Assembly: GCA_002269645.1 (NCBI GenBank)
Contig: NIVC01001705.1
Span: 106,115 to 170,114, forward strand
Direction of reading: 5' to 3'
Source of the DNA: Macrostomum lignano
Taxonomy: Eukaryota
DNA length: 64,000 bases
Shown here: in pieces, positions 15,613 to 64,000 of the stretch
How the letters are laid out: each line of letters begins with the position of its first letter
Position numbering within the stretch: the first letter of the stretch is position 1
The notes under the pieces: generated by a model
The model's database searches: none
Told to the model about the DNA's origin: nothing
Seen by the model: the letters and a program-made list of their open reading frames with translations, nothing else
Program-made: the position numbers and the translations under genes

Positions 15613-17496
15613 TCACAGCGAGCCACTGAGCTCCTGCATTGTCTTGCAAGTCAAGCGCAGAGGCAGACAGAGCGAGATGATCAGGCGGGGCTTTCGACCA
15701 AATGCCCAGTCTATCAGTCGATGCAGCCAATAGTAGCTGGTCTCCATGTGCTCGGCATAGTTCAGCTTGAGCACGTAGCTAAACTCAACGCCGCGGTCCA
15801 TACTGTGGCTGACAACGCTAGACAGAACTCCGGTGACAAAGTTGATGAACACTATGGGCACCAGAATGATAAAGACGAACAGAGTTACTAGCAGGTCCAG
15901 ACGATCAAACGTCGGAGCAAACGTGCTCGTATCGACAACGTTCAGTGTGAGCAGGAAGGCCCAATAGAAGGACTCCATGAATTTCGGCTGCTGCTGACTC
16001 GCACTGATGTTGCTCGCCTGCTTCAGCTGCTGCTGCTGCTGCTGTTGAAACCGGCCAGACGCCTGGAACAGGCGGGCGAACAGCACCAGCAGTAGGACGT
16101 AGCAGATTAAAAAATTGCCAAACATTGCAAAGCTGTTGTAGAAGCTGTTAGTGAATCTCGACACTCCGGGAATGAGACGGCTTAGCAGCAGGATGAATAA
16201 GACACTGAAGAGGGCGTGTACCAGCATCAGGCAGCCGATGAGCGGTTGCAGCTGCTCCATGCCGAGGCTATCGCAGGCTGCAGCAGGTGCCACCATCAGC
16301 AGCAGCATTGTCAGAGCTAGCAGGCCGCAGGACAGATACGGAAAATACCACTGCATGACGAGTCTGAAGCTTCCAGCCGAGGCGCTCGGATAGCCAACTC
16401 TGCGTCTGTAGCGGTATTTGCGAACAGCTCCGAGCCCAGGCACCACGAGCTGCCAGACGCTCACAGCTAGGCTGTAGGCAATGGTGACTTTGAAACCCGT
16501 TGGCAAGGCGACTCCGCTAGTGTTTGTGCACGCCTCGACCAGGTGATCGCTAACCGTGTAGTCAAAGAAGAATAGCGTCAGAGTGAGATGGAAAATTCGC
16601 TCGATAATGTTTGTCAACAATAGCCAGCGACTGCGAGAGAACATGGCATCGACCCAGGAGGCAATGACCAACGGCTGTCGGAAAATCTCCATTCTGCGCA
16701 GAGCGTCCAGCTGCGTCTCGCACACGTCGGCCATGATTGCCAAAGGCGTCAGGAATCGTTCCGGTCCCGGGCAGACAGAGTCGGACAAGTCTATCTTGAC
16801 GTGCTCCATTGCGCCAGCAACGCGAGTCACAACTCCGCAGCTGTGGTTGCGTTACATCAGCTTCTCAACGATATGCACCTGGCCGGTGTACACACCCCAG
16901 TCCAGCGGCCTCATGCCAAAGCTGTTCACCTGACGAGACATTTGATCGACCTGGTCTGGGGTGAAAAAACCCTTAATAAAAAACCGGATGTATGCGAACT
17001 GGGTGCTTAATGATAGCCGACCGTCTGAGTCTTGATCCAGCACCTTTAGTCCCAGAAATAGCACGTGATAAGCATTGAAACCGTACTCACTGACCTCGGC
17101 CAGGTTCAACTGTGGAGCGGAAGTTTTGATAAACTCGCAACAGCGCTTAGCATTGAACATGACAGCCATAAGGAAAGGATTTGTCGGCTGCTGATGAATG
17201 CCACGAAGGGCTGTAATTTGCTTCGATATCGAGCTCGAACTTGAGCTGCTCCGGAATTCCGGCGGGCAATAGCGAATATGATTGCTTGTATCACGGCTGG
17301 TTAGGAAGTTCAGCCAGGTGTCCGGGCATCTTTGAGAGAATCTTCTCAGCGCTGCCTCGTCGTCTTGAAGGAGGCAGCGAATTAGTAGAGGCCACTGGCT
17401 CTCGCCGATGTAGTCTGATATGTTAAAGATCGACTCATTGTTGTTCTGAGGCTTCGGACTGCCTGCAGCAAGGGGAGCGAGCCGAATCGTCCTCAT
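15613..17496 (-). pseudogene. Intronless TRPV-like cation channel (ankyrin repeats + 6TM), 627 codons with one in-frame TAA at 16852-16854
   Basis: ORFs 16852-17496 and 15613-16830 share a frame (EKLM*RNHSCGVVTRV); ankyrin-like GFNAYHVL and NSFGMRPLDWGVYTG; pore-like FMESFYWAFLLTLNVVD; S6-like IILVPIVFINFVTGVLS. Confidence 0.75.
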
Positions 17497-17990
17497 GGAG
17501 AAGTATAAAGTTCGAAAAAGAAGAGACAGTTTAAAAAAAGAGTAGCTCGTAAATCATCGCTGTTTTTATACCCGTCAACGCGCCAATGCAAAAATAATTA
17601 GCTAATGCTTCCTCCATTATTTGATCAATGCAGCTAGCGCTGAAAAAGGCTTCAGAACGCCCAGGCGTTAATGAAAAGCACGGGGGCAGGGCACTTGATT
17701 TTATGTAACTTCGCTTGTAATTGTCCCTTGACAAAGAGTAAGACGGAAGTCAAAGTGATACCGTATGTTAGTTTGCTCGATTGTTGTGACCAAGATGCTA
17801 ATACAGCCTGGTGAGCAATCTAATATTTTAGAGTGAAGGACATGAAAGTGTGTAATAAATGTACACTTATGGGTCGCAAGCATAACGAACTACATGTACA
17901 TACATATGAACTATACTAGCTGTAATTCCGTTGATTGATTTGTCGCGTCAAACAGGGACGAATAGTAGAGTATACTCGTACTGAAGTAGT

Positions 17991-33169: not shown

Positions 33170-34270
33170 GTGGCATCGGACGCCGCCCGCTCCACGCCGC
33201 CGCCGTCGCCCAGGCAGCAGCAAAATCAGGCGCAGCAGCAGTCGGGCTCCAAGCGTCGCCGACGGCGCCTAACGTCAGCCAGCCGTCAGACGTCGCTGCG
33301 CTTCCGCGTCGAGTCCAGCGTTGCCGAACTGCTGCGCGACTTCCTGCGCTCCCTGCCGGCCCCGGCGCCGCCAGCCTGCGGCAACAACGACACCAGCTTC
33401 GGCGCCGATTTCTCCTCCGGCGCCGCCGACCAATCAGCGCCGGGCGACAATCGAGCGCCGGCGTTTATTGAATCGTCCTTCCTGACAACAACGCCAGGCG
33501 CCGATTCCGCTTCGGACGGCGCGGCCGGTTGGCGCCTTGTTAGCGCCGATCCCTCCGGCGTGCCCGCCGATCGCCTGCCGCTGCCCCGCCTGTTAGGCGG
33601 CGAGTCCCGACTGTTGAACAGTCGCCGCCTGCGGCATCTGGTGCGCCGTCTGCCGCCGCGGGCCGAGGGCGCCGACCTGCGCCTGCTGTACAGGGCCAGT
33701 CGGCACGGATTCTCGCTACAGTCGGCCTACCGGGCCTGCCACTCGGGCGCCGATCCCGACGCCTACTGCCTGCTGCTGGTGGCCGACACTCGCAATCATC
33801 TGTTCGGCGCCTCCCTGTCGGCGCCGCCGCGCATGTCCGAGCACTACTACGGCACTGGCGAGACTTTCGTGTTCCGCTGGTCGCATCCCATTGGCCAGTT
33901 GAAGGCCGCCACAGCTGCTAAGGATGTTAAAAATGATCCCGGAGTTGATATGGTCACCGCCGCCGCTGCCGACTCCGCCTCAAAGACGGCGACATCCGAG
34001 GATTCAGATTTAGACGAAGACGAAGAGGACGACGTCCACAACCCGCTGACTAACGACTTCTATCACTACGCCTGGACGGGGGAGAACTCCTTTTTTGAGC
34101 GCGGCGCCACTGATTCCTTTAATGTTGGCTCTCGCGCTCTGTGGCTGGACTCCGGGCTCTATAGGGGCCGAACTCAGGCCTGCGACACCTTTGCTAGCCC
34201 TGTACTGACTGGCGCTGCCGAGGACTTTGTTGTGCAAGAATTGGAGCTGTGGTTGTTCACCTGCGAGTGA
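33170..34270 (+). CDS. OXR1: OXR1/NCOA7-like last exon with TLDc domain
   Basis: RRLPPRAEG...LLYRASRHGFSLQSAYR...LFGASLS...HYYGTGETFVFR...LWLDSGLYRGRTQACDTFASPVL...FVVQELELW; TAG acceptor at 33167-33169. Confidence 0.9.
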   Translation: MASDAARSTPPPSPRQQQNQAQQQSGSKRRRRRLTSASRQTSLRFRVESSVAELLRDFLRSLPAPAPPACGNNDTSFGADFSSGAADQSAPGDNRAPAFIESSFLTTTPGADSASDGAAGWRLVSADPSGVPADRLPLPRLLGGESRLLNSRRLRHLVRRLPPRAEGADLRLLYRASRHGFSLQSAYRACHSGADPDAYCLLLVADTRNHLFGASLSAPPRMSEHYYGTGETFVFRWSHPIGQLKAATAAKDVKNDPGVDMVTAAAADSASKTATSEDSDLDEDEEDDVHNPLTNDFYHYAWTGENSFFERGATDSFNVGSRALWLDSGLYRGRTQACDTFASPVLTGAAEDFVVQELELWLFTCE

Positions 34271-44070: not shown

Positions 44071-44097
44071 CTGAGGTATGAGACACTTGTCTAACAG

Positions 44098-44754
44098 TTT
44101 AAATCCCGCTTCCCAAATCCAGAGTTTCCCAAAGCGGAGCCCACCTCTGTCGAGCCGACTCCACAGCAGCCGCAGCAGCTGTGCCGGAAGAGGCGGTCGC
44201 GCACCAGCTTCAAGCAGCAGCAGCTGCAGGCCATGAAGGCGCATTTCCAAGCCAACCCGAATCCGGATTCATGCGAACTGCGCCTGTTGGCCTCGAGCAC
44301 GGGACTCAGCAAGCGAGTGCTGCAGGTGTGGTTCCAGAACTCCCGAGCTAAGCACAGAAGACACCTGGCTAAGTCAGCCAATCAGGACTCCAATCACTCT
44401 GGCAATGCAAACTCGTCAGCCAATCAGGATTCCTATCACTCTGGCAATGCAAACTCGGCAGCCAATCAGGATTCCAATCACTCTGGCAATGCAAACTCGG
44501 CAGCCAATCAGGACTCCAATCACTCTGGCAATGCAAACTCGGCAGCCAATCAGGACTCCAATCACTCTGGCAATGCAAACTCGGCAGCCAATCAGGATTC
44601 CAATCACTCTGGCAATGCAAACTCGGCAGCCAATCAGGATTCCAATCACTCTGGCAATGCAAACTCGGCAGCCAATCACAATCAGCCTGAGCTGTCCGAC
44701 ACCAGCGGTTGCAGCTCGATGGCGCAGCCGAAAGATCTGAACTGCTCCGCATAG
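44098..44754 (+). CDS. Lhx2/9: LIM-homeobox last exon: homeodomain + 7 x 14-aa repeat
   Basis: RKRRSRTSFKQQQLQAMKAHFQANPNPDSCELRLLASSTGLSKRVLQVWFQNSRAKHRR; RTSFK, MK..F, KRVLQVWFQN.RAK.RR point to apterous/Lhx2/9 rather than Lhx6/8. Confidence 0.9.
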   Translation, partial: FKSRFPNPEFPKAEPTSVEPTPQQPQQLCRKRRSRTSFKQQQLQAMKAHFQANPNPDSCELRLLASSTGLSKRVLQVWFQNSRAKHRRHLAKSANQDSNHSGNANSSANQDSYHSGNANSAANQDSNHSGNANSAANQDSNHSGNANSAANQDSNHSGNANSAANQDSNHSGNANSAANQDSNHSGNANSAANHNQPELSDTSGCSSMAQPKDLNCSA

Positions 44755-55269: not shown

Positions 55270-56604
55270 GACATCTGTAGACACAAATAGACGTCTCTAA
55301 ATACCTAATTATCAACCCATTCATGATCATCTATTAAGAAACCCAAATAAGACATCTACAGACACTCAAATGAGACATCTGCAGACACTCAAATGAGATT
55401 ATCTACAGACACCCAAATAAGATATTTACAGACACTCAAATAGGACATCTGCAGACACTCAAATGAGATTATCTACAGACACTCAAATAAGATATCTACA
55501 GACACTCAAATGAGACATCTACAGACACTCAAGCAAGACATCTACAGACACCCAAATAAGATATCTACAGACACTCAAATAAGACATCTGCAGACACTCA
55601 AATGAGATTATCTACAGACACTCAAGCAAGACATCTACAGACACTCAAATAAGACATCTACAGACACTCAAATGAGACATCTACAGACACTCAAATGAGA
55701 TTATCTACAGACACCCAAATAAGATATCTACAGACACTCAAATGAGACATCTACAGACACTCAAGCAAGACATCTACAGACACCCAAATAAGAAATCTAC
55801 AGACACTCAAATGAGACATCAACAGACACTCAAGCAAGACATCTACAGACACCCAAATAAGAAATCTACAGACACTCAAATAAGAAATCTACAGACACTC
55901 AAATGAGACATCTACAGACACCCAAATAAGAAATCTACAGACACTCAAATGAGACATCTACAGACACTCAAGCAAGACATCTACAGACACCCAAATAAGA
56001 AATCTACAGACACTCAAATAAGAAATCTACAGACACTCAAATGAGACATCTACAGACACCCAAATAAGACATCCACAGGCACCCAAAAAAATCTACAGAC
56101 ACCCAAATAAGATATCTACAGACACTCAAATAATATATCTACAGACACTCAAACAAGAAATCTACAGACACTCAAATAAGACATCTACAGACACCCAAAT
56201 AAGACATCTACAGACACCCAGATAAGACATCTACAGACACCAAATAAGACATCTGCAGACACCCAAATAAGACATCTACAGACACCCAAATAAGACATCT
56301 GCAGACACCCAAATAAGACATCTACAGACACCCAAATAAGACATCTACAGATACCCAAATAAGAAATCTACAGACACTCAAATAAGACATCTACAGACAC
56401 CCAAATAAGAAATCTACAGACACTCAAATAAGACATCTACAGACACCCAAATAAGAAATCTACAGACACTCAAATAAGACATCTACAGACACCCAAATAA
56501 GAAATCTACAGACACTCAAATAAGACATCTACAGACACCCAAATAAGACATCTACAGACACCCAAATAAGACATCCACAGGCACCCAAAAAAATCTACAG
56601 ACAC
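55270..56604. repeat. 22-bp minisatellite AGACATCTACAGACACTCAAAT
   Basis: Direct inspection; ends exactly at the Polinton terminus. Confidence 0.95.
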
Positions 56605-57108
56605 TAGTAGTATATACGATACAAAATACCCAGCAAACCATTCTCACCATTGCAAACAATTTAACCCTTTATCAGTGTGAAATGGCCTGTTTCCCTTCAT
56701 TTTCGCTCGTCTTCACTTCGCTCAACTCGCTTCGCTCATCCTCGCTTCATTTCGGTCAAACAGGCCATTTCACACTTACAACGATTAATTCTTTTTGAAT
56801 GGTGAGAACACGCCCTCGTCGCTCGCTTTGGTTTGCTGGGTATTTTGTATCGTCAACGCTTCCAACTCTCTCCAACACACACAAACTTTCTAGAACCCGT
56901 CGCACGCGCCGCAGGCGCGAAGGGTCGGAAAGAATAGAAGCTATTTATAGTCAGCTCACCTACCCACCCAACATTCCATTTAGACCAGATTTTAGACCAA
57001 ACAAAACTAGACCATCGTTTTGGTTTTCGTTTTCAAAAATTTGGTCTAAAATCTGGTCTAAATGGAATGCAGACAATCTTTTTTCTGTTACTAAAAATAG
57101 AACAAAAA

Positions 57109-57506
57109 ATGACACACGTTACACATGTGCAAAATATAAATGAGTATCAGGTAGGAGATCCAATTGAATACCGAGGTGAGGGACTTTTTGATTTGGTTGG
57201 AACAGCAGCAAATTTTGTTAAAGACAATATGGGGCTTATAGGGCAAGCTGGCTCTGCAGCAGGCTCTATAACAAATGCTGTAAAAGGAGGAATTGAAGCA
57301 GCTAGAGCGGCAGAAGAACTAAAGAAATTGAGAGATTTTAACGACACCCTCTCACAAATAAATGCAATAAAAGATTTAAAGCTGGCACAAGCCGCACAAC
57401 CAACAGAAACCCCACGAAAAGCGCATCAATAAGTAATAAAGATATTCAGGATTTTAATAAAATGTTAAATACTATTAAAGGTGGAAAAGGATTAAAGAAA
57501 TTTTAA
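57109..57506 (+). CDS. Polinton small Gly/Ala-rich amphipathic protein (possible membrane-lytic/core), about 132 aa after repairing one frameshift
   Basis: YRGEGLFDLVGTAANFVKDNMGLIGQAG...; +1 C at 57410-57413 continues to DFNKMLNTIKGGKGLKKF*. Confidence 0.55.
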
Positions 57507-57516
57507 CAATATAAAA

Positions 57517-58507
57517 ATGGACTCAGTTAATGATGAAAACCGGTTATATTTTATAGGAGAAATTGTAGATACCTTAAATCTTGATGATAATAAGCAAACC
57601 CACACAATGTTAAAAAGATTGGATCGATTAGGTAAAAAGTTTGACTACGACATCGATACATTTAAACTCGCAGCAAAATATGCACAAGAAGGAAGGCCAA
57701 TATCCTTTAAGAATCGCGGCAGAAATTATAGGTTGACAGACTCCGATGTGAAATTTTTAATGGAGACTCACACTAAAAAGGACGGCGGATTACTACCCAT
57801 TCTACCGCTTCTTTTAGGGCTTGGCGCAGCTGGAGCAGTCGGTTTAGCCGGAAAAAGAATTCATGATAATGTAAAACAGCTAGGAGAGTTAAGAGCGAAA
57901 CAGGGGGAATCTTGCCCCTTGCAGCTTTGCTCCCAATAATTTTTGCAGGAATTGGAGCAGCTGGAGGAGTTGCTGGCGGAGCAGCTGGAATTGCAAAAGC
58001 AGTAAATGACAAAAAAGCTGCGGACGAAAAAGCTAAAAGAGAGGCCGAATTTCAAAGACAGCAAATAACGCAGGACGCACAATTTAAACAAAAACTTATC
58101 GATACAATTAATAGTAGTTCAGCAACAGCTGAGCAAAAAAGAAATGCAGAAGCTAGGTTATCAGCTGGAAAAGGGTTAATACTAAAAGGATCAAATCATG
58201 GCAATGGTTTACTTTTACAAGGAACAACCCAAGGAAGCGGAGTTGTAGCAGATAAACTACATGAATTTGGTCAAACTTTAGAAAAAACGGGTGAGAAAGC
58301 TAAAGGATTTTTTGACAATATTGGGCTAATTTTAGGCCAGCAGTTCAGAAGATTTTTACTAAATTAGGAAAAGATTTTAACATAATTGAAAAGCATGATG
58401 GAAGCGGATTATATCTCGAAATGAGACCAAAAGCAGGTTCAGGAATTTTCTTAAATTCAAACGTTATGGGCAATGGATTGCTGTTACCAAAAGCAGATCT
58501 CGAATAG
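57517..58507 (+). CDS. Polinton core-protein precursor with two adenovirus pX(mu)-like motifs, about 330 aa after repairing two frameshifts
   Basis: KDGGLLPILPLLLGLG and KQGGILPLAALLPIIFAGIGAAGG; repeated GKGL/GNGL/GSGL motifs; +1 G at 57903-57907 and at 58323-58325 join the pieces. Confidence 0.6.
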
Positions 58508-58585
58508 GCTCCTGGGGGGTGGGTCAGGAAAAAACAAAATTAAAAAATCAATAATTCAAACATTATATAAATTATATTCTATAAA

Positions 58586-61500
58586 ATGGAACAAAGATTG
58601 ACCCCAGATCAGATTCGACAACTTCTTGCAAATGAGCGCCAACAGTTCAATCGATTACAAAGACAGATTGAACAAATTGAACAGCGCCAAAGACAACAAC
58701 GCCGCCAAAGAGCAAGAGAAAGACAGAGAGAAAGGCAGAGAGAAAGAGAAATACAAGACCAACAAATAAATGCATTAGCAAATAATATAAGGGCAGAATA
58801 TGAAATGAAGCGATTAATAGAAAAGGCTGAATATGAAAAAAGAATAGCAGAATTAGAAAAAAACCAAAAGAAACCCACACGTCGGAAACCTCGGAATAAA
58901 TCGGATGAAAAACCATTAGATGAGTTTATTAGGGTTTATCGATTTGAACCAATGCAGAATGTCCTAGATTTTATTGAAACCCAGCTTTCAAACGGATATG
59001 CTGTTGAAATTACTAATGCGAGGGTACAATATTTTTATAATAAAACCGGAGATGATCGTGAAGAGATTAATCAATACTTAGCAACATTTTATAATATAAG
59101 CCAATTTCAAGCTTGGTTTAAGCATTTGGTAGAAAATTACGACATGAATTTAAGTGTGTTTTCTGGAAGACTTAAAATGACACCAAACGAAATTACACTT
59201 AAACACGAAAGGTCAAAGCAGGGTATGGAACAAATGTCATGTGTGAAATTGTAGAGTATAAAGATGAGTACTGTTACATACCTAGTGATGGAAATTGTTT
59301 CTACAAGTGTGTTCAGTTTATTTATGGTGATAAAGCCCCATCCAAAGACGAATATGGTGCTTGGTTGTTCGACTCAAGAACCCAAAGAGGTTTAATGACA
59401 AATTCAAGAATTGGAAGATTCAATGAATATTTTAATCTTAATATAGGGCTGTACAACACCAAAAATCGTGGCATTGAACCAAAGTCTCAAAGAGGGATTC
59501 ACCACGATTGGTTATTAATAAATTATTTCCACACACCGATTACCACATTGGCATTATTGTCTTATATCAAATAAACAACGAGGAATCGCCCTCGAACGGA
59601 TAAAAGACAATTATAAAGTTGTATATAAAAACCCAACGCTCGAAAATGTTAAGGAGCTAAAAATGTTCAACACACCCACAAATCCCAATAAATCAAACGT
59701 ATATATATTTGATTTTGAAACATATTTAAATTATAATCAACAAGCATGTCCGTATGCGGTTGGTCTTTTAAACTATAACGACTTTTCTAATAAGTGTAAT
59801 GAAACCCCAGAGACAATAAAGAAACTAACTAAGATCTTGATATCAGATCGCGGTTGTGATTTTCAAACAGATGGAGATAAGGTTGACCGTGCCGAAGGTT
59901 CGCAACCAAAGGTTGATTGTGTTAGAAAAATGTTTAAATACCTTGGTACAGTTAGGTCAAAAAAGATTGTTTTGATCGCGCATAACTCATCCCGCTTTGA
60001 TTCATACATACCACTATTTTGTAATATAAAACCAATTAAAATTCTCAAAACCCAAGAGGAATATTATCAATAACTTTTGTAAACGATTACGCGTCAAAAG
60101 AGGTTAGTGCATTTATAAACAAAGATAAGAAGAAGAATCATAAGGATTCGAAACAAACCATTACGATGCTTTGTTCATATCAACACGCATCAATGAGTTT
60201 AAAAAAGTTTTGCTCATCAATGACAATTAGAGAGGATTTGCGAAAGACCTCAATGGTTCACGACATTACCGAACACGACTATTTAGAGCGCATGGACGAA
60301 TGGTATGAATATTTACAATTTGATCTTATTTCTTTATGCGCCTGTATTCATAAGTATAATGAAATAGCATATGAAATTGGAGGAATGACAATGTTCGATA
60401 CTCTTACCTGTTCAAGTTTAACATTAAAATGTTGGTTTAAAGATTTTGTTAGAGTTGAAGACAAAATGAAACAATATCTAAAGACAGAAGAAAAAACTAA
60501 TTACATTAAAAAAGTTGAAGAAATAATATCTCCGTTGAAAATAGAGGATTATTTTGACTTAAGCAAACTTGAAAAAGCAAAATACCAAACACTATTAAGA
60601 AAAGAATTTTCAGTTCACTCTCATACCAATCCTTATATACGAAGGTTTATGCGGGACGCAGTCAAAGGAGGCAGGGTATTTGCACTAATAAATAAATATG
60701 AAAGCGACTGTTTTCAAACAATTGTAGACGTTGTAAAAGCCCATTTAAAAACACCAACAAGCGACCCATGCGAGGTTATATCATCTTATCTCAAAAGCGA
60801 TATGGAAGAAAAAAAGAAAATCGCAATTAAACTAAAAAAGCAATTGGGTACCGTATCAGATTGTTTAATGAATTTTGATGGAGTTTCGTTGTACCCATCT
60901 GCCATGTCTGATAAGGATAGTGAATATCCAAGAGCAGAAACAGCAAGAGTTTTTGATATAAGCGAGGAAAAAGATTTCTTGGCACAATTTAATTCACAAA
61001 CCTTTCGACCAAAAACAGCGGTTTTAAAGATTATGTATGAGAATCCTAACACCGTTTTTCTTCAACATCTCCCATCGAAAGATAAAGAGAAATTTTATAA
61101 TCCGGAAACAAAAGCAAACGAAACAAAAACATTAAATAGGTTTAGAAACGGAAAAGTAATTGACACCTTATGTTCCGTAGATATACAAGAAATTGTAAGA
61201 ATGGGTGGAAAAATATTAAAGATATATAGTGGAATTGTATATGAAAAAAATTACGATTTCTCTCCGTTTCAGAATTATATTACAAATCTTTTTGAAATGA
61301 GAAAAGTATTTAAAAAAGAAAATAACGAGGCAGGTTCTGAATTGGTAAAAACACTATTAAATTCATTATATGGCAAAACAGTTCAAAGAGACATTACTTT
61401 CACAACACATCTCTGGAATTTGCAAACATTAAAAACCGAATACGATGACACAATCAAATCATATGAGAAAATATGTGACGATTTATATTATGTTGAAAAA

Positions 61501-62202
61501 AATAAAGACACGCAAGAATATGTAGATGAGGAAGAGGAAAGTCCTATAACAAGCCTTTGTCCAGCACAATTAGGAATATTTATCTTAGCTCATTCAAGAA
61601 GGATCATGAATAATTTTATTACCTCTATAGAGGGCTCAAAGACTCCAGAAATTTATTACGGCGATACAGATTCGTTATATATACATAAAAAACATTGGGA
61701 CACATTAAATAAAAACGGGCATGTTGGAAATAACTTAAGTCAAGGAAAAAATGATTATGGAGAGGGTGGAATTATATTCGGTTATTTTATCGCTCCTAAA
61801 ATTAAATATTGTCTTTTATTGAAAGACGATTTTATTATGGAAGAGAAAAAAACATTTAAAGGATGTGCAAACGATAAGATTAATTTTGCATCGTTTAAAA
61901 CTTTATATGATGGACAGTCAATAAAAGTAAATAATAATGCTCCGTGGAAACGATCATTTGAAGGTGGTATAACAATTCCTCAAAGCGGATCAACAATATC
62001 AAAAACATATACCTCTACGATAAACACATTTAAAAGAGAAAAACCGGATAAAAACGGAGTTATGAAACCATTCTTTAAAAACTATTTTGATGACAAACCA
62101 CAGCATGAACATTCAATTGAATATTATAACAGTTTACTATTTGACGTTGACTATAATTGTTTTGAGTTCGATATTGATGAATTAGCACTTGAAAAAAACT
62201 AA
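58586..62202 (+). CDS. polB: Protein-primed family-B DNA polymerase (N-terminal region + OTU-like + exonuclease + polymerase), about 1205 aa across three frameshifts
   Basis: IFDFET (ExoI), IAHNSSRFD (ExoII), FDGVSLYPSAM, KTLLNSLYGK, YGDTDSL; joins ORFs 58586, 59239, 59663 and 60166. Confidence 0.93.
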
Positions 62203-62580
62203 AGCATGTAATTGTTTAAGCATAATATCCATTTCGATTTCATATAATATTGAGCCAATTTCCTCACAGTCGCAGGGTAACTTAAACAATCCTTTATTTT
62301 TTCCTAAGTTTTTTTATTTTTCTAACCAATCTATCTATTTCAATTTCAATTACTATTTCAGCATAAGCAATTGCAGATTTAATAAAACGTTTTCTTTTAT
62401 CATTCATATCGGATGGGAAACATATCGTCCCCATACTCATGATATTTCTGAGATATAATTATATTTATTTTTTTATTAATATCATTAAGTTCACGCTCTT
62501 TAGTGATAAGGATTTTTATGTATCCATTTTCTTATAAAAAATTTAGTCTTCGTCGTCATCCTCCCAAACAGCCGCCAATT

Positions 62581-62874
62581 TTACAGTCCTATCACTCTTT
62601 TTATTATTTGTTTTTTTAGTTTAAATTGCAATCCACCCTCGTTGCAGTATTTCATAACAAACGCTTTAGGTTTATTAATAACTAAAACAGGAAAATTTTT
62701 AACATCATCTCCGCTTAGACATAAAATTTTTTGCCCATCTAATTGTAAAAATATTGATTGAAGCCCAATAAATTTAACCTGTCTCAAACATATAATATTA
62801 TATTCTTTATTCTCCAACATATTGGGTGTGAGATAATTAATCACATTAGAATCGGTTTTGAACCAGCTCTCCAT
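62581..62874 (-). CDS. Polinton hypothetical protein, about 97 aa
   Basis: ATG at 62874 preceded by an A-rich context; MESWFKTDSNVINYL...; no recognisable motif. Confidence 0.45.
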   Translation of the reverse strand: MESWFKTDSNVINYLTPNMLENKEYNIICLRQVKFIGLQSIFLQLDGQKILCLSGDDVKNFPVLVINKPKAFVMKYCNEGGLQFKLKKQIIKRVIGL

Positions 62875-63440
62875 TTTTAATCTAAAAAAATAATAAAAAA
62901 AAATGAAAGACATTTATGTTTGTAATAAATGTAATGTGACTATGCACAGAGGGCAAACAGCAAACGGAGATATATATCATATGTGTTATTCATGTTCTAA
63001 AATATATCAATTTGAAAAAACAAAAAAGATTGAAAACTCATATTACTATTTAAAAACACAATTTTAAGAAATCTTACAAGAGACATTTCTGATCCAATTT
63101 TAATTCCCGGAAATAATGTTTATTTATATAATAACTTTTTCCATTTAAATAAAGGAAAGGGATTAAGTTCGAAAGACTCCGAAAGGATTTTAATTTTAGT
63201 TGGATATTATTTCAATTTTCTTATTCGAGAGAATACAAAGTTTATAAGGATAGGTAACATACCTAACGAAATGTTATTGAAAAAGTCATTGGAATTTTTA
63301 TGTATTGATAAAAAATTTAAACCTAGAATCAGAAGAGAGTTACCACTTTGGGAAGAATATATAACATATGCATTAAATAAATTGTACTTTGTACACATGA
63401 CAAGTCATGATCGTGCCATAGGCACGCGTGCTTTGCACGA

Positions 63441-63737
63441 TTAAACAACATTAAGTTCTACAGCACTTCCTGACCGCGGGCTTTGTGCCCCAGTAGCAAT
63501 AGTTTCAGGTTCGTAAATGCCTAATGTTTCTATAGGTGGAGCTTTGGGTTTGTCCAAACGTAATTCTTTTAATTCCATATCGGTAAAAGTTTCAACATCT
63601 AAAATTCTATTTCTATCTTTTAAATATTTTTCATATAATTCAACCGCGGTTGATAATTCATGAATCGTTATCTCTCCGTCATCCAATATTTTTTGCACAT
63701 ATAAATATAATTGATTTTTATATTGTTTTGGCAACAT
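63441..63737 (-). CDS. Polinton hypothetical protein, 98 aa
   Basis: Non-repetitive ORF with plausible composition; no recognisable motif. Confidence 0.45.
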   Translation of the reverse strand: MLPKQYKNQLYLYVQKILDDGEITIHELSTAVELYEKYLKDRNRILDVETFTDMELKELRLDKPKAPPIETLGIYEPETIATGAQSPRSGSAVELNVV

Positions 63738-63949
63738 CTCTTAAGATTTATATTTTTCCTTTCTTTTTTTAAGATATAATTTAATGCTAAAAGTATTGAT
63801 AAGCTGATCAATTCAAAACCTGATATTGAGCCAATTGAAATACCTAAAAATAATTGAGATAAATTAAGAGTTGGAATAGATTGTAAAATACCTAAAACGA
63901 TTACACATAACATTGATAAGCTTCCAAATCCAATATTTGAAAAATCCAT
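63668..63949 (-). CDS. Polinton hypothetical membrane protein, 93 aa
   Basis: Two hydrophobic stretches followed by a basic KKERK segment. Confidence 0.4.
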   Translation of the reverse strand: MDFSNIGFGSLSMLCVIVLGILQSIPTLNLSQLFLGISIGSISGFELISLSILLALNYILKKERKNINLKRCCQNNIKINYIYMCKKYWMTER

Positions 63950-64000
63950 ATTTCTTATATGGTTTGAAATCTCTTCTTACTTTTTTAGCAATAAATCATA

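Follow-up and report, generated by a model that had tools for sequence, protein, structure and literature searches.

Polymerase type and terminal inverted repeat type change together in a Polinton family of the flatworm Macrostomum lignano

Results

Two polymerases and two kinds of ends in one family

The window, a 64,000-nucleotide stretch of Macrostomum lignano DNA, contains the left 7.4 kb of a Polinton of about 17.5 kb. The family to which this element belongs has two versions, A and B. They have common body genes and a common integrase; the polymerases that occupy one and the same slot are unrelated, and so are the terminal inverted repeats (TIRs). This linked exchange of polymerase and ends is more striking than the gene layout, and it is not visible from the window alone.

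Polymerase and TIR types agree at 91 of the 92 left ends typed: 25 are A/A, 66 are B/B, one combines polymerase A with TIR-B, and none combines polymerase B with TIR-A. After shared flanks are collapsed the corresponding numbers are 22, 62, 1 and 0. Of the polymerase starts, 31 of 39 for type A and 68 of 93 for type B entered the count, and the Fisher p value of 1.8e-19 overstates the evidence because the copies are kin. The two ends are of the same TIR type in 24/24 contigs with both ends typed (25 are listed). The single exception locus, verified by empty alleles, has TIR-B on the left, polymerase A, and TIR-A on the right. Its crossover falls in the common inner motif of the TIRs and gave one end of each type, so the element keeps one matching end. 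When 8 A elements are compared with 6 B elements, the TIR hairpin and the polymerase ORF are the sole stretches that are always type-exclusive. This linkage is not described in the papers searched on hairpins and origins in Polinton TIRs and on Polintons of this host.

Bodies are exchanged between types

The bodies of the family are 0-19% apart, and their relationships do not follow the polymerase. A tree (86 rows) built from the 1.5-kb segment that separates TIR from polymerase shows 8 changes of polymerase type, and the AU test rejects a single type-A clade (p 1.8e-113). The median A-B distance in this segment, 0.084, is smaller than the A-A distance, 0.096. Because the intervening 1.5 kb changes type 8 times, the association of TIR and polymerase is not mere physical linkage. 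Types A and B are also interleaved in the trees of the putative major capsid protein (MCP), integrase (INT) and fibre genes. Inserts of 153 nt and 166 nt, which are homology-flanked cassettes, cross between types, as do two fibre alleles.

These crossings bear on a neutral history, in which two old lineages exchanged short conversion tracts without crossover and three non-homologous blocks were co-inherited without any coupling. The blocks (two TIR hairpins and the polymerase) could not be converted piecemeal, and a polymerase cassette as large as 3.6-4 kb may be transferred only rarely. Within types, moreover, co-divergence of TIR and polymerase beyond that of the body was not found with 180 nt of polymerase; rho of TIR distance against polymerase and body distance is 0.60 vs 0.81 for A and 0.59 vs 0.56 for B. 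A polymerase swap without TIR change reported in nematodes (PMC10748475) points the same way. However, the inserts and fibre alleles are likewise non-homologous or divergent cassettes and do cross types, one crossover product exists, and the polymerase ORF, although it has homologous sequence on either side, is never found amplified between foreign ends. We regard the neutral history as rather unlikely.

Collapse of near-identical repeats during assembly could in principle produce chimeric contigs that mimic common bodies. The 6-bp target site duplications (TSDs) match in 18 of the 24 two-ended contigs and are mismatched in the other 6, so that trees of the right half may be mixed by chimeras, and the window differs from its right-hand counterpart, C955, by 12 substitutions and 21 gaps across a 3,865-nt overlap. 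The segment tested above, however, lies less than 2 kb from unique flank, and frequent chimerism there would also disrupt the concordance of TIR and polymerase; one of 92 is discordant. In the MCP and INT trees, A and B elements with matched TSDs fall together at shallow and at deeper levels. In addition, 3 of 4 runs have short-read contigs that join type-B TIR ends to the common motif, among the loose ends listed. An assembly artefact is a very improbable source of the pattern.

The two polymerases

Polymerases A and B have no significant BLASTP similarity to one another (best E 1.8). The swapped region runs from just past the start codon to just short of the stop codon, with homology on both sides. 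Polymerase A matches PF03175 (E 3e-20), and its fold matches the phi29, bidnavirus-like, adintovirus and adenovirus polymerases, as expected of a Polinton/Maverick protein-primed polymerase (pPolB). Its predicted layout is TP-vOTU-exonuclease-palm; the model has a domain of four strands and two helices, then an OTU-sized domain, ahead of the exonuclease. A weak Otubain match (E 0.011) spans the Cys motif, giving polymerase A the combination of OTU and pfam03175 that marks Alpha adintovirus polymerases, with the Otubain part weak. Polymerase B has no PF03175 match, matches Endonuclease_7 (E 9e-8), and has 2,744 relatives at E<=1e-40. It appears Beta-like by the criterion of PMC8502044, which is a divergent polymerase that falls outside pfam03175.

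The polymerase A clade is small, with 75 proteins at E<=1e-10, of which the named members are from Lottia gigantea; the best non-self identity is 54%. The pPolB2 class of Jeong et al. takes in oomycete, nematode and mollusc polymerases and has an HNH or VSR insertion; polymerase A has these Lottia relatives and no HNH/VSR match. Profile searches with polymerase alignment A3 returned no named reference groups among their matches. Relatives with intact ends were sought to learn whether the hairpin TIRs arrived together with polymerase A, and the close metagenomic matches lie on short contigs; searches of viral contigs with the MCP and with the type-B polymerase had no matches. The suggestion that this may be an undescribed lineage holds within these protein and paper searches, given the small clade and the few, incidental mentions of Polintons of this host in the papers searched. 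Purifying selection acts on the two polymerases and on the MCP, with pN/pS values among diverged copies of 0.07-0.13 and 0.16-0.28 for the polymerases and 0.02-0.13 for the MCP.

Terminal hairpins

Both TIR types are predicted to form a long internal hairpin with compensatory changes. The hairpins are imperfect, 240-300 nt long, and alike in architecture: a long stem, a G-poor loop, and then the common small hairpin. This architecture is kept across up to 30-40% TIR divergence. In TIR-B, 20 of 64 pairs have a two-sided change, and 62 cells compare with 18 after shuffling (0/500). In TIR-A there are 48 cells against 18 shuffled (0/500), and the pairs with a two-sided change are not above shuffles (10 vs 8.4, 59/500). 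Covariation of the arms can be produced by template switching instead of selection. Of 60 B sites, 55 have a stem that begins at nt 1. Of 21 A sites, 18 have one that begins at nt 9-14, which leaves a tail of about 10 bases; the full stem is absent in 4 of 21 A sites. The first 7 nt, AGTAGTA, are common to both types.

The hairpin telomeres of parvoviruses and poxviruses occur in flip and flop orientations. Termini of this kind are ruled out here, since the loop has one orientation at 67/67 termini and only an internal insert flips.

The coupling of polymerase and ends could be real without the hairpins being its cause. Specificity would then come from the primary sequence close to the terminus; the hairpins would either have arisen incidentally through template switching or have a role in excision, packaging or protection of the ends. 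Type-specific bases do start at nt 8-12, the A sites lacking a full stem would fit, and TIR palindromes of protist virophages and of PLVs (Polinton-like viruses) are reported mostly with non-pPolB replicases (10.64898/2026.07.28.741278). That two unrelated TIRs have a like architecture, kept despite their divergence and with a type-specific end geometry, argues the other way. We hold a purely primary-sequence specificity to be possible but doubtful; it is compatible with the linkage itself.

The window locus

The element begins with AGTAGT at position 56606, as originally predicted, and directly abuts a host 23-bp minisatellite array (55337-56605), inside the last unit of which it lies. The predicted 6-bp TSD, GACACT (56600-56605, + strand), is also real: the terminus followed by GACACT has a single occurrence in the genome, on C955, where the remainder of the interrupted minisatellite unit follows. 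An empty site with one GACACT is present on two further contigs, C2102 and C516. The window stops at position 64000 because contig C1705 ends there, and it therefore holds neither a right end nor virion genes; a right TIR, the TSD, and INT, ATPase, protease-like and capsid-like genes were found on C955. The prediction of a near-intact, young Polinton is thereby supported. Complete elements on five contigs are 17,366-17,547 bp long, within the 13-25 kb of Polintons/Mavericks, and the TIR (321 nt; range 100-1,500 bp) and the TSD (6 bp; range 5-8 bp) fit as well. C1706 was rejected as the continuation, as its right flank is another locus. A linear plasmid or contaminant is ruled out by the integrase, the TSD, the empty alleles, and host genes within the window.

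The left TIR is of type A (56606-56926, +). It is identical to the 321-nt right TIR on C955 and is found at both ends of sister copies. Its predicted long imperfect hairpin spans 56616-56853 (+), with the first ~10 nt unpaired, compensatory changes, and a z of -9.3 (0/100 shuffles). The inner GC-rich motif of ~40 nt with its small hairpin (56889-56926, +) is the sole long stretch common to TIR-A and TIR-B and has 246 exact matches in the genome (control, 0). An optional insert of ~153 nt follows (56927-57079, +); within it, the arms of a perfect 30-bp inverted repeat (56972-57001/57040-57069) enclose a 38-nt loop, which occurs in either orientation, varying among copies. The insert-free form is present in short-read contigs. 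The insert is not a free MITE, since 20/20 fetched matches are at the same Polinton left-end position. The original prediction overlooked both the long hairpin and this insert between TIR and gene 1.

Genes of the window copy

The core-genes-first layout is real, and the two Gly-rich structural-type genes and the 3.6-kb pPolB that had been proposed are all present. Gene 1 (57109-57506, +; one frame break in the assembly) encodes a small Gly-rich protein, a putative core protein on account of its G-x-G-L motifs, which we take to be adenain-type sites. Gene 2 (57517-58507, +; two frame breaks) encodes a putative core protein of ~330 aa with pX-like hydrophobic segments and a weak match to adenovirus pX (PF05829, E 9e-4 and 1.4e-4, under the curated cut-off). 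The type A protein-primed DNA polymerase (58586-62202, +) is split into four ORFs in the assembly. The orphan ORFs downstream had all been placed on the opposite strand, which is correct for three of the four. Those on the - strand are at 62190-62542 (~124 aa in sister copies, no family match), 62546-62876 (acidic C-terminal tail, no family match; at a guess, an ssDNA-binding protein) and 63441-64000 (two hydrophobic segments, truncated by the contig end, no significant family match). The fourth, at 62903-63444, is on the + strand and has two N-terminal CxxC motifs and no significant family match.

Once frames are repaired there are no nonsense codons, as predicted: alignment of 7 ORFs to the natural ORFs of sister copies gave 2,023 codons free of gaps, 0 of them nonsense. 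Every ORF of the window copy has frame-breaking gaps relative to those ORFs, mostly private to this assembled copy. The three breaks in genes 1 and 2 are likely assembly errors, because short-read contigs of 2-4 of the 4 runs agree with the other copies; breaks in the polymerase gene were judged against other copies.

Virion and integrase genes

The integrase is of the rve type characteristic of Polintons/Mavericks (PF00665, E 1.7e-7, 31.8 bits, slightly below the cut-off; IS481-type DDE, E 1e-12). The packaging ATPase has visible Walker A and B motifs and a weak Pox_A32 match (E 0.012). The putative MCP is a 490-aa ORF with no match in PDB, Pfam or phage searches. Among the members of its Atlas look-alikes (0.97-0.98, with a low recognition score), 10% carry DJR-like_dom and 24% Capsid_N, and its single-sequence fold has a pLDDT of 29. 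Protease and minor capsid candidates are ORFs of suitable size without matches in profile and PDB searches; the protease candidate, presumably, has the His-Asp-Gln-Cys order, read by eye.

Discussion

The linkage suggests that each polymerase and its own ends probably form a cognate replication unit. The common integrase would require only the first 7 nt, AGTAGTA, and so could insert either end type. Each polymerase, with its own fused terminal-protein domain (fused TP-vOTU domains are described in PMC11161782), would recognise the bases specific to its type, which start at about nt 8-10, in the way that pTP-Pol of adenovirus recognises the core origin. After strand displacement, either TIR would pair with itself in the single-stranded state and stand in locally for the panhandle formed by adenovirus inverted terminal repeats (ITRs) (PMC12513018). 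Folding of TIR-B would give a blunt duplex copy of the terminus, and that of TIR-A a duplex with a ~10-nt tail. Recombination would mix the bodies, and only genomes with matching polymerase and ends would be amplified; the polymerase must then act mainly in cis, or the genomes must pass through a one-genome bottleneck. Against the cognate unit stand nematode Polintons, in which polymerases are reported to be swapped and TIRs conserved (PMC10748475), so the coupling is not obligatory in Polintons.

More tentatively, this may be one animal virus population on two mutually exclusive replicons, each polymerase working only on its own self-folding end. The ends would have converged on differing hairpins, and the near-perfect match over ~130 copies would mean that each genome replicates alone, as when a single virion infects a new cell.

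The family is a natural experiment in which capsid, core and integrase genes are constant and polymerase and ends co-vary. It separates the need of the integrase from the probable need of the polymerase, and predicts a self-folding end. It offers a population-genetic argument on cis-action or a single-genome bottleneck, which bears on the spread of Polintons as viruses. Classification by polymerase or TIR would split this one family into two.

Comparison with known systems

The elements resemble the Polintons/Mavericks described as 'adintoviruses' (PMC8502044) in their TIRs, 6-bp TSD, rve integrase, OTU-like pPolB, ATPase, protease-like and capsid-like genes, and PLA2 and pX-like segments. According to that study, Alpha polymerases occur coupled to Beta virion modules; in the flatworm, a single family has Alpha-like (PF03175) and Beta-like polymerases in alternation, and the TIRs go along. 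Nematode pPolB1/pPolB2 Polintons (PMC10748475) likewise exchange distant polymerases among close elements and have other genes interspersed in trees. Their TIRs are described as highly conserved between classes, whereas those of the flatworm family are unrelated, and their polymerases are 16% identical, whereas the flatworm pair has no significant match. The table in that paper gives 748 pPolB1 and 0 pPolB2 for Platyhelminthes.

In the papers surveyed the start of Polinton replication is not shown, and the TIR as a replicase-tied origin is given as a model. Turnover of PLV end modules (PMC11296320) and replicase mosaicism (10.64898/2026.10.13.758929) are similar in proposing that TIRs act as origins and are replaced along with replication genes, the morphogenetic module being retained. 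The model of PMC11296320 is hypothetical, and there the integrase is replaced too and the genes lie beside the TIR. In the flatworm family, by contrast, the integrase is common, the polymerase lies 1.5 kb from one end and >11 kb from the other, and ~90 copies show the linkage. TIRs of Halocafeteria virophages and PLVs (10.64898/2026.07.28.741278) also have palindromes at their extremities that vary with replication genes. Those palindromes are 52 nt long, are preferentially in non-pPolB elements and are proposed replication primers; the flatworm elements have their far longer imperfect hairpins and a pPolB with a predicted terminal protein. The adenovirus ITR (PMC12513018) has a trinucleotide-repeat terminus, protein priming, and a displaced strand that refolds to a duplex origin, as envisaged here, but adenovirus pairs two ITRs, whereas each flatworm TIR is predicted to pair with itself.

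The element and its right end

The element that begins with AGTAGT at position 56606, adjoining a 23-bp minisatellite, is a real, young Polinton. It is AT-richer than the host DNA, and it runs to 64000, where the window and the contig both end. The predicted right junction occurs once in the genome, on contig C955 of the same assembly, where GACACT is followed by the remainder of the minisatellite unit, and the terminal inverted repeats (TIRs) on the two contigs (56606..56926 in the window) are identical over 321 nt. Two contigs have the empty site. C955 and its sister contigs carry integrase, Walker-motif ATPase and protease-, capsid- and fibre-like ORFs. The original prediction of a Polinton with GACACT as target-site duplication (TSD) stands, and the hallmarks TIR, TSD, polymerase, integrase and ATPase are all present. 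The names capsid, penton and protease are putative, given on weak evidence. The element is 17.4-17.5 kb long on the five contigs that hold both ends. As had been claimed, the window copy has no nonsense codons (0 in 2,023 aligned codons), and its frame breaks are mostly private to that assembled copy. One database protein, labeled Macrostomum lignano, is 100% identical over the matched part.

Host genes in the window, encoding an ion-transport/ankyrin protein (15613-17553), a TLDc protein (33170-34270) and a homeodomain (44095-44754), lie amid about 70 rows of tandem repeats. The open frames flanking the insertion site, which have no family match, may be exons of one candidate minus-strand host gene.

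Two versions of one family

A small insert beside the TIR was traced to other copies whose genes 1 and 2 (the Gly-rich putative core genes, 57109-58507 in the window) are 91-98% identical to those of the window and whose TIR is different. These type-B copies lack the polymerase of the window copy (type A) and have another in the same slot, with the borders of the swap just past the start codon and just short of the stop. What TIR-A and TIR-B have in common is limited to the first 7-9 nt and an inner motif of ~40 nt. Exact-pattern counts across the genome gave 246 inner TIR motifs, 110 gene-2 sites and polymerase starts of type A (39) and type B (93); independent insertions are fewer, because some loci are repeated on several contigs.

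The two polymerases have no significant BLASTP match to each other. The type-A polymerase falls in a small clade of 75 proteins and has a PF03175 match; that of type B has no PF03175 match, carries an endonuclease VII domain and has thousands of relatives. A type-A model (988 aa, pLDDT 76), made from a C-terminally truncated database protein, has a long helix followed by a 4-strand/2-helix domain and a domain of OTU size containing Cys and His, then an exonuclease and a palm; it has fold matches to protein-primed polymerases. Type A would be Alpha-like and type B Beta-like by the criterion of PMC8502044.

The junction of left TIR and gene 1 (56927-57079) takes alternative inserts in different copies: ~153 nt (34 copies), ~345 nt (16 copies, all type B), ~166 nt (5 copies), ~150 nt (2 copies) or none (15 copies). 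In certain B copies an additional 1.3-1.5 kb lies at this junction. Of the 33 typed copies of the 153-nt insert, 13 (in both types) have its 38-nt loop in the inverted orientation: repeated inversion directly upstream of gene 1.

Several copies have further features. On C1706 a group I intron (L002:8370-8703; RF00028, 64.6 bits) lies within a PLA2-like gene upstream of the integrase; L036 and L092, the other stretches compared, have no gathering-level match to it. On C955 a PLA2-like segment and the integrase form a single ORF (L036:2327-3529), and the HNH/endonuclease VII-like ORF upstream of it is variable or absent among copies. A fibre-like protein of 596 aa (L035:4285-6075) has N-terminal repeats, weak matches to phage tail fibres, and two divergent alleles, each found in both types. 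On C2506 (L008/L009) a young type-A copy has inserted into the TIR of an older member of this family. In some rearranged copies (L073-L075, C87; L079-L080, C151; L103-L104, C629) both termini carry the same set of end-adjacent genes, possibly through end-to-end recombination.

Linkage of polymerase and TIR

Among 109 loci, the polymerase start was typed in 99 and the TIR also in 92, leaving out 10 without the start pattern and 7 without a TIR in the stretch taken. The 92 pairs comprise 25 A/A, 66 B/B, one type-A polymerase with TIR-B and no type-B polymerase with TIR-A. Typing of both ends gave a single TIR type in 24/24 contigs, with matching TSDs in 18. The 1.5-kb segment that separates the polymerase from the left TIR gave a mixed tree (86 rows; one low-coverage row and flank duplicates removed): type changes 8 times, and a single A clade is rejected (p 1.8e-113). 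Trees of the capsid-like ORF (MCP), integrase and fibre likewise interleave A and B (FastTree; some contigs are chimeric). In 8 A versus 6 B elements, no stretch other than the TIR hairpin and the polymerase is consistently type-specific. Both polymerases and MCP are under purifying selection.

These data make it probable that polymerase and TIR are functionally coupled. Two observations count against this: the copies are not independent, which lessens the weight of the linkage, and within a type TIR divergence tracks polymerase divergence no more than body divergence. The main rival, conversion without crossover, requires no function; we regard it as unlikely, since inserts and fibre alleles do move across types but the polymerase was not found amplified between foreign ends. 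The one discordant locus has TIR-B at the left (C2322), polymerase A, and TIR-A at the right (C2834), with empty alleles on C150 and C2833.

Hairpins in the TIRs

The window TIR folds with a z of -9.3, and 17/18 A and 16/16 B TIRs fold far better than their shuffles (12 each). Two-sided changes occur in TIR-B at 20/64 pairs and 62 cells (0/500 shuffles) and in TIR-A, after one row without the 3' arm was dropped, at 48 cells (0/500 shuffles) and 10 pairs (59/500 shuffles), by a shuffle control that ignores relatedness. The stem starts at base 1 in 55/60 TIR-B sites, re-creating the terminus, and at base 9-14 in 18/21 TIR-A sites. Loop orientation is constant in 67/67 termini; the loop never flips, which rules out rolling-hairpin telomeres. 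A role of the hairpins in the coupling is held less firmly than the coupling itself.

Proposed mechanism

Polinton polymerases are described as having a fused terminal protein and a vOTU protease (PMC11161782), so that a polymerase swap replaces the primer protein too. The adenovirus pTP-polymerase complex, according to PMC12513018, recognises a core origin in the ITR and jumps back across a trinucleotide repeat; ITR pairing on the displaced strand re-forms the duplex origin. By the same logic, the common AGTAGTA would serve the common integrase and jump-back, and the bases past it, with the self-folded end, would serve the matching polymerase. Mismatched recombinants could integrate, as one has, but would not be amplified. 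More than 100 resident copies could in principle complement in trans, so the linkage suggests that the polymerase acts in cis or that genomes pass through a single-genome bottleneck.

Comparison with known systems

Polymerases are reported to be exchanged between Alpha and Beta adintoviruses (PMC8502044), replicase exchange is reported to be broad in small DNA viruses (10.64898/2026.10.13.758929), and PMC11296320 puts forward joint turnover of TIR and replicase as a hypothesis. Co-segregation of polymerase and TIR in one family with a common integrase was not found in the text of the papers cited here or in the literature searches made. The TIR palindromes described in protist elements are mostly in those without pPolB (10.64898/2026.07.28.741278), whereas the M. 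lignano hairpins are in pPolB elements. Polymerase exchange is already known in nematode Polintons, which keep their TIRs when the polymerase swaps (PMC10748475), whereas the M. lignano family changes both; the family-level linkage of polymerase with hairpin ends is what is new here.
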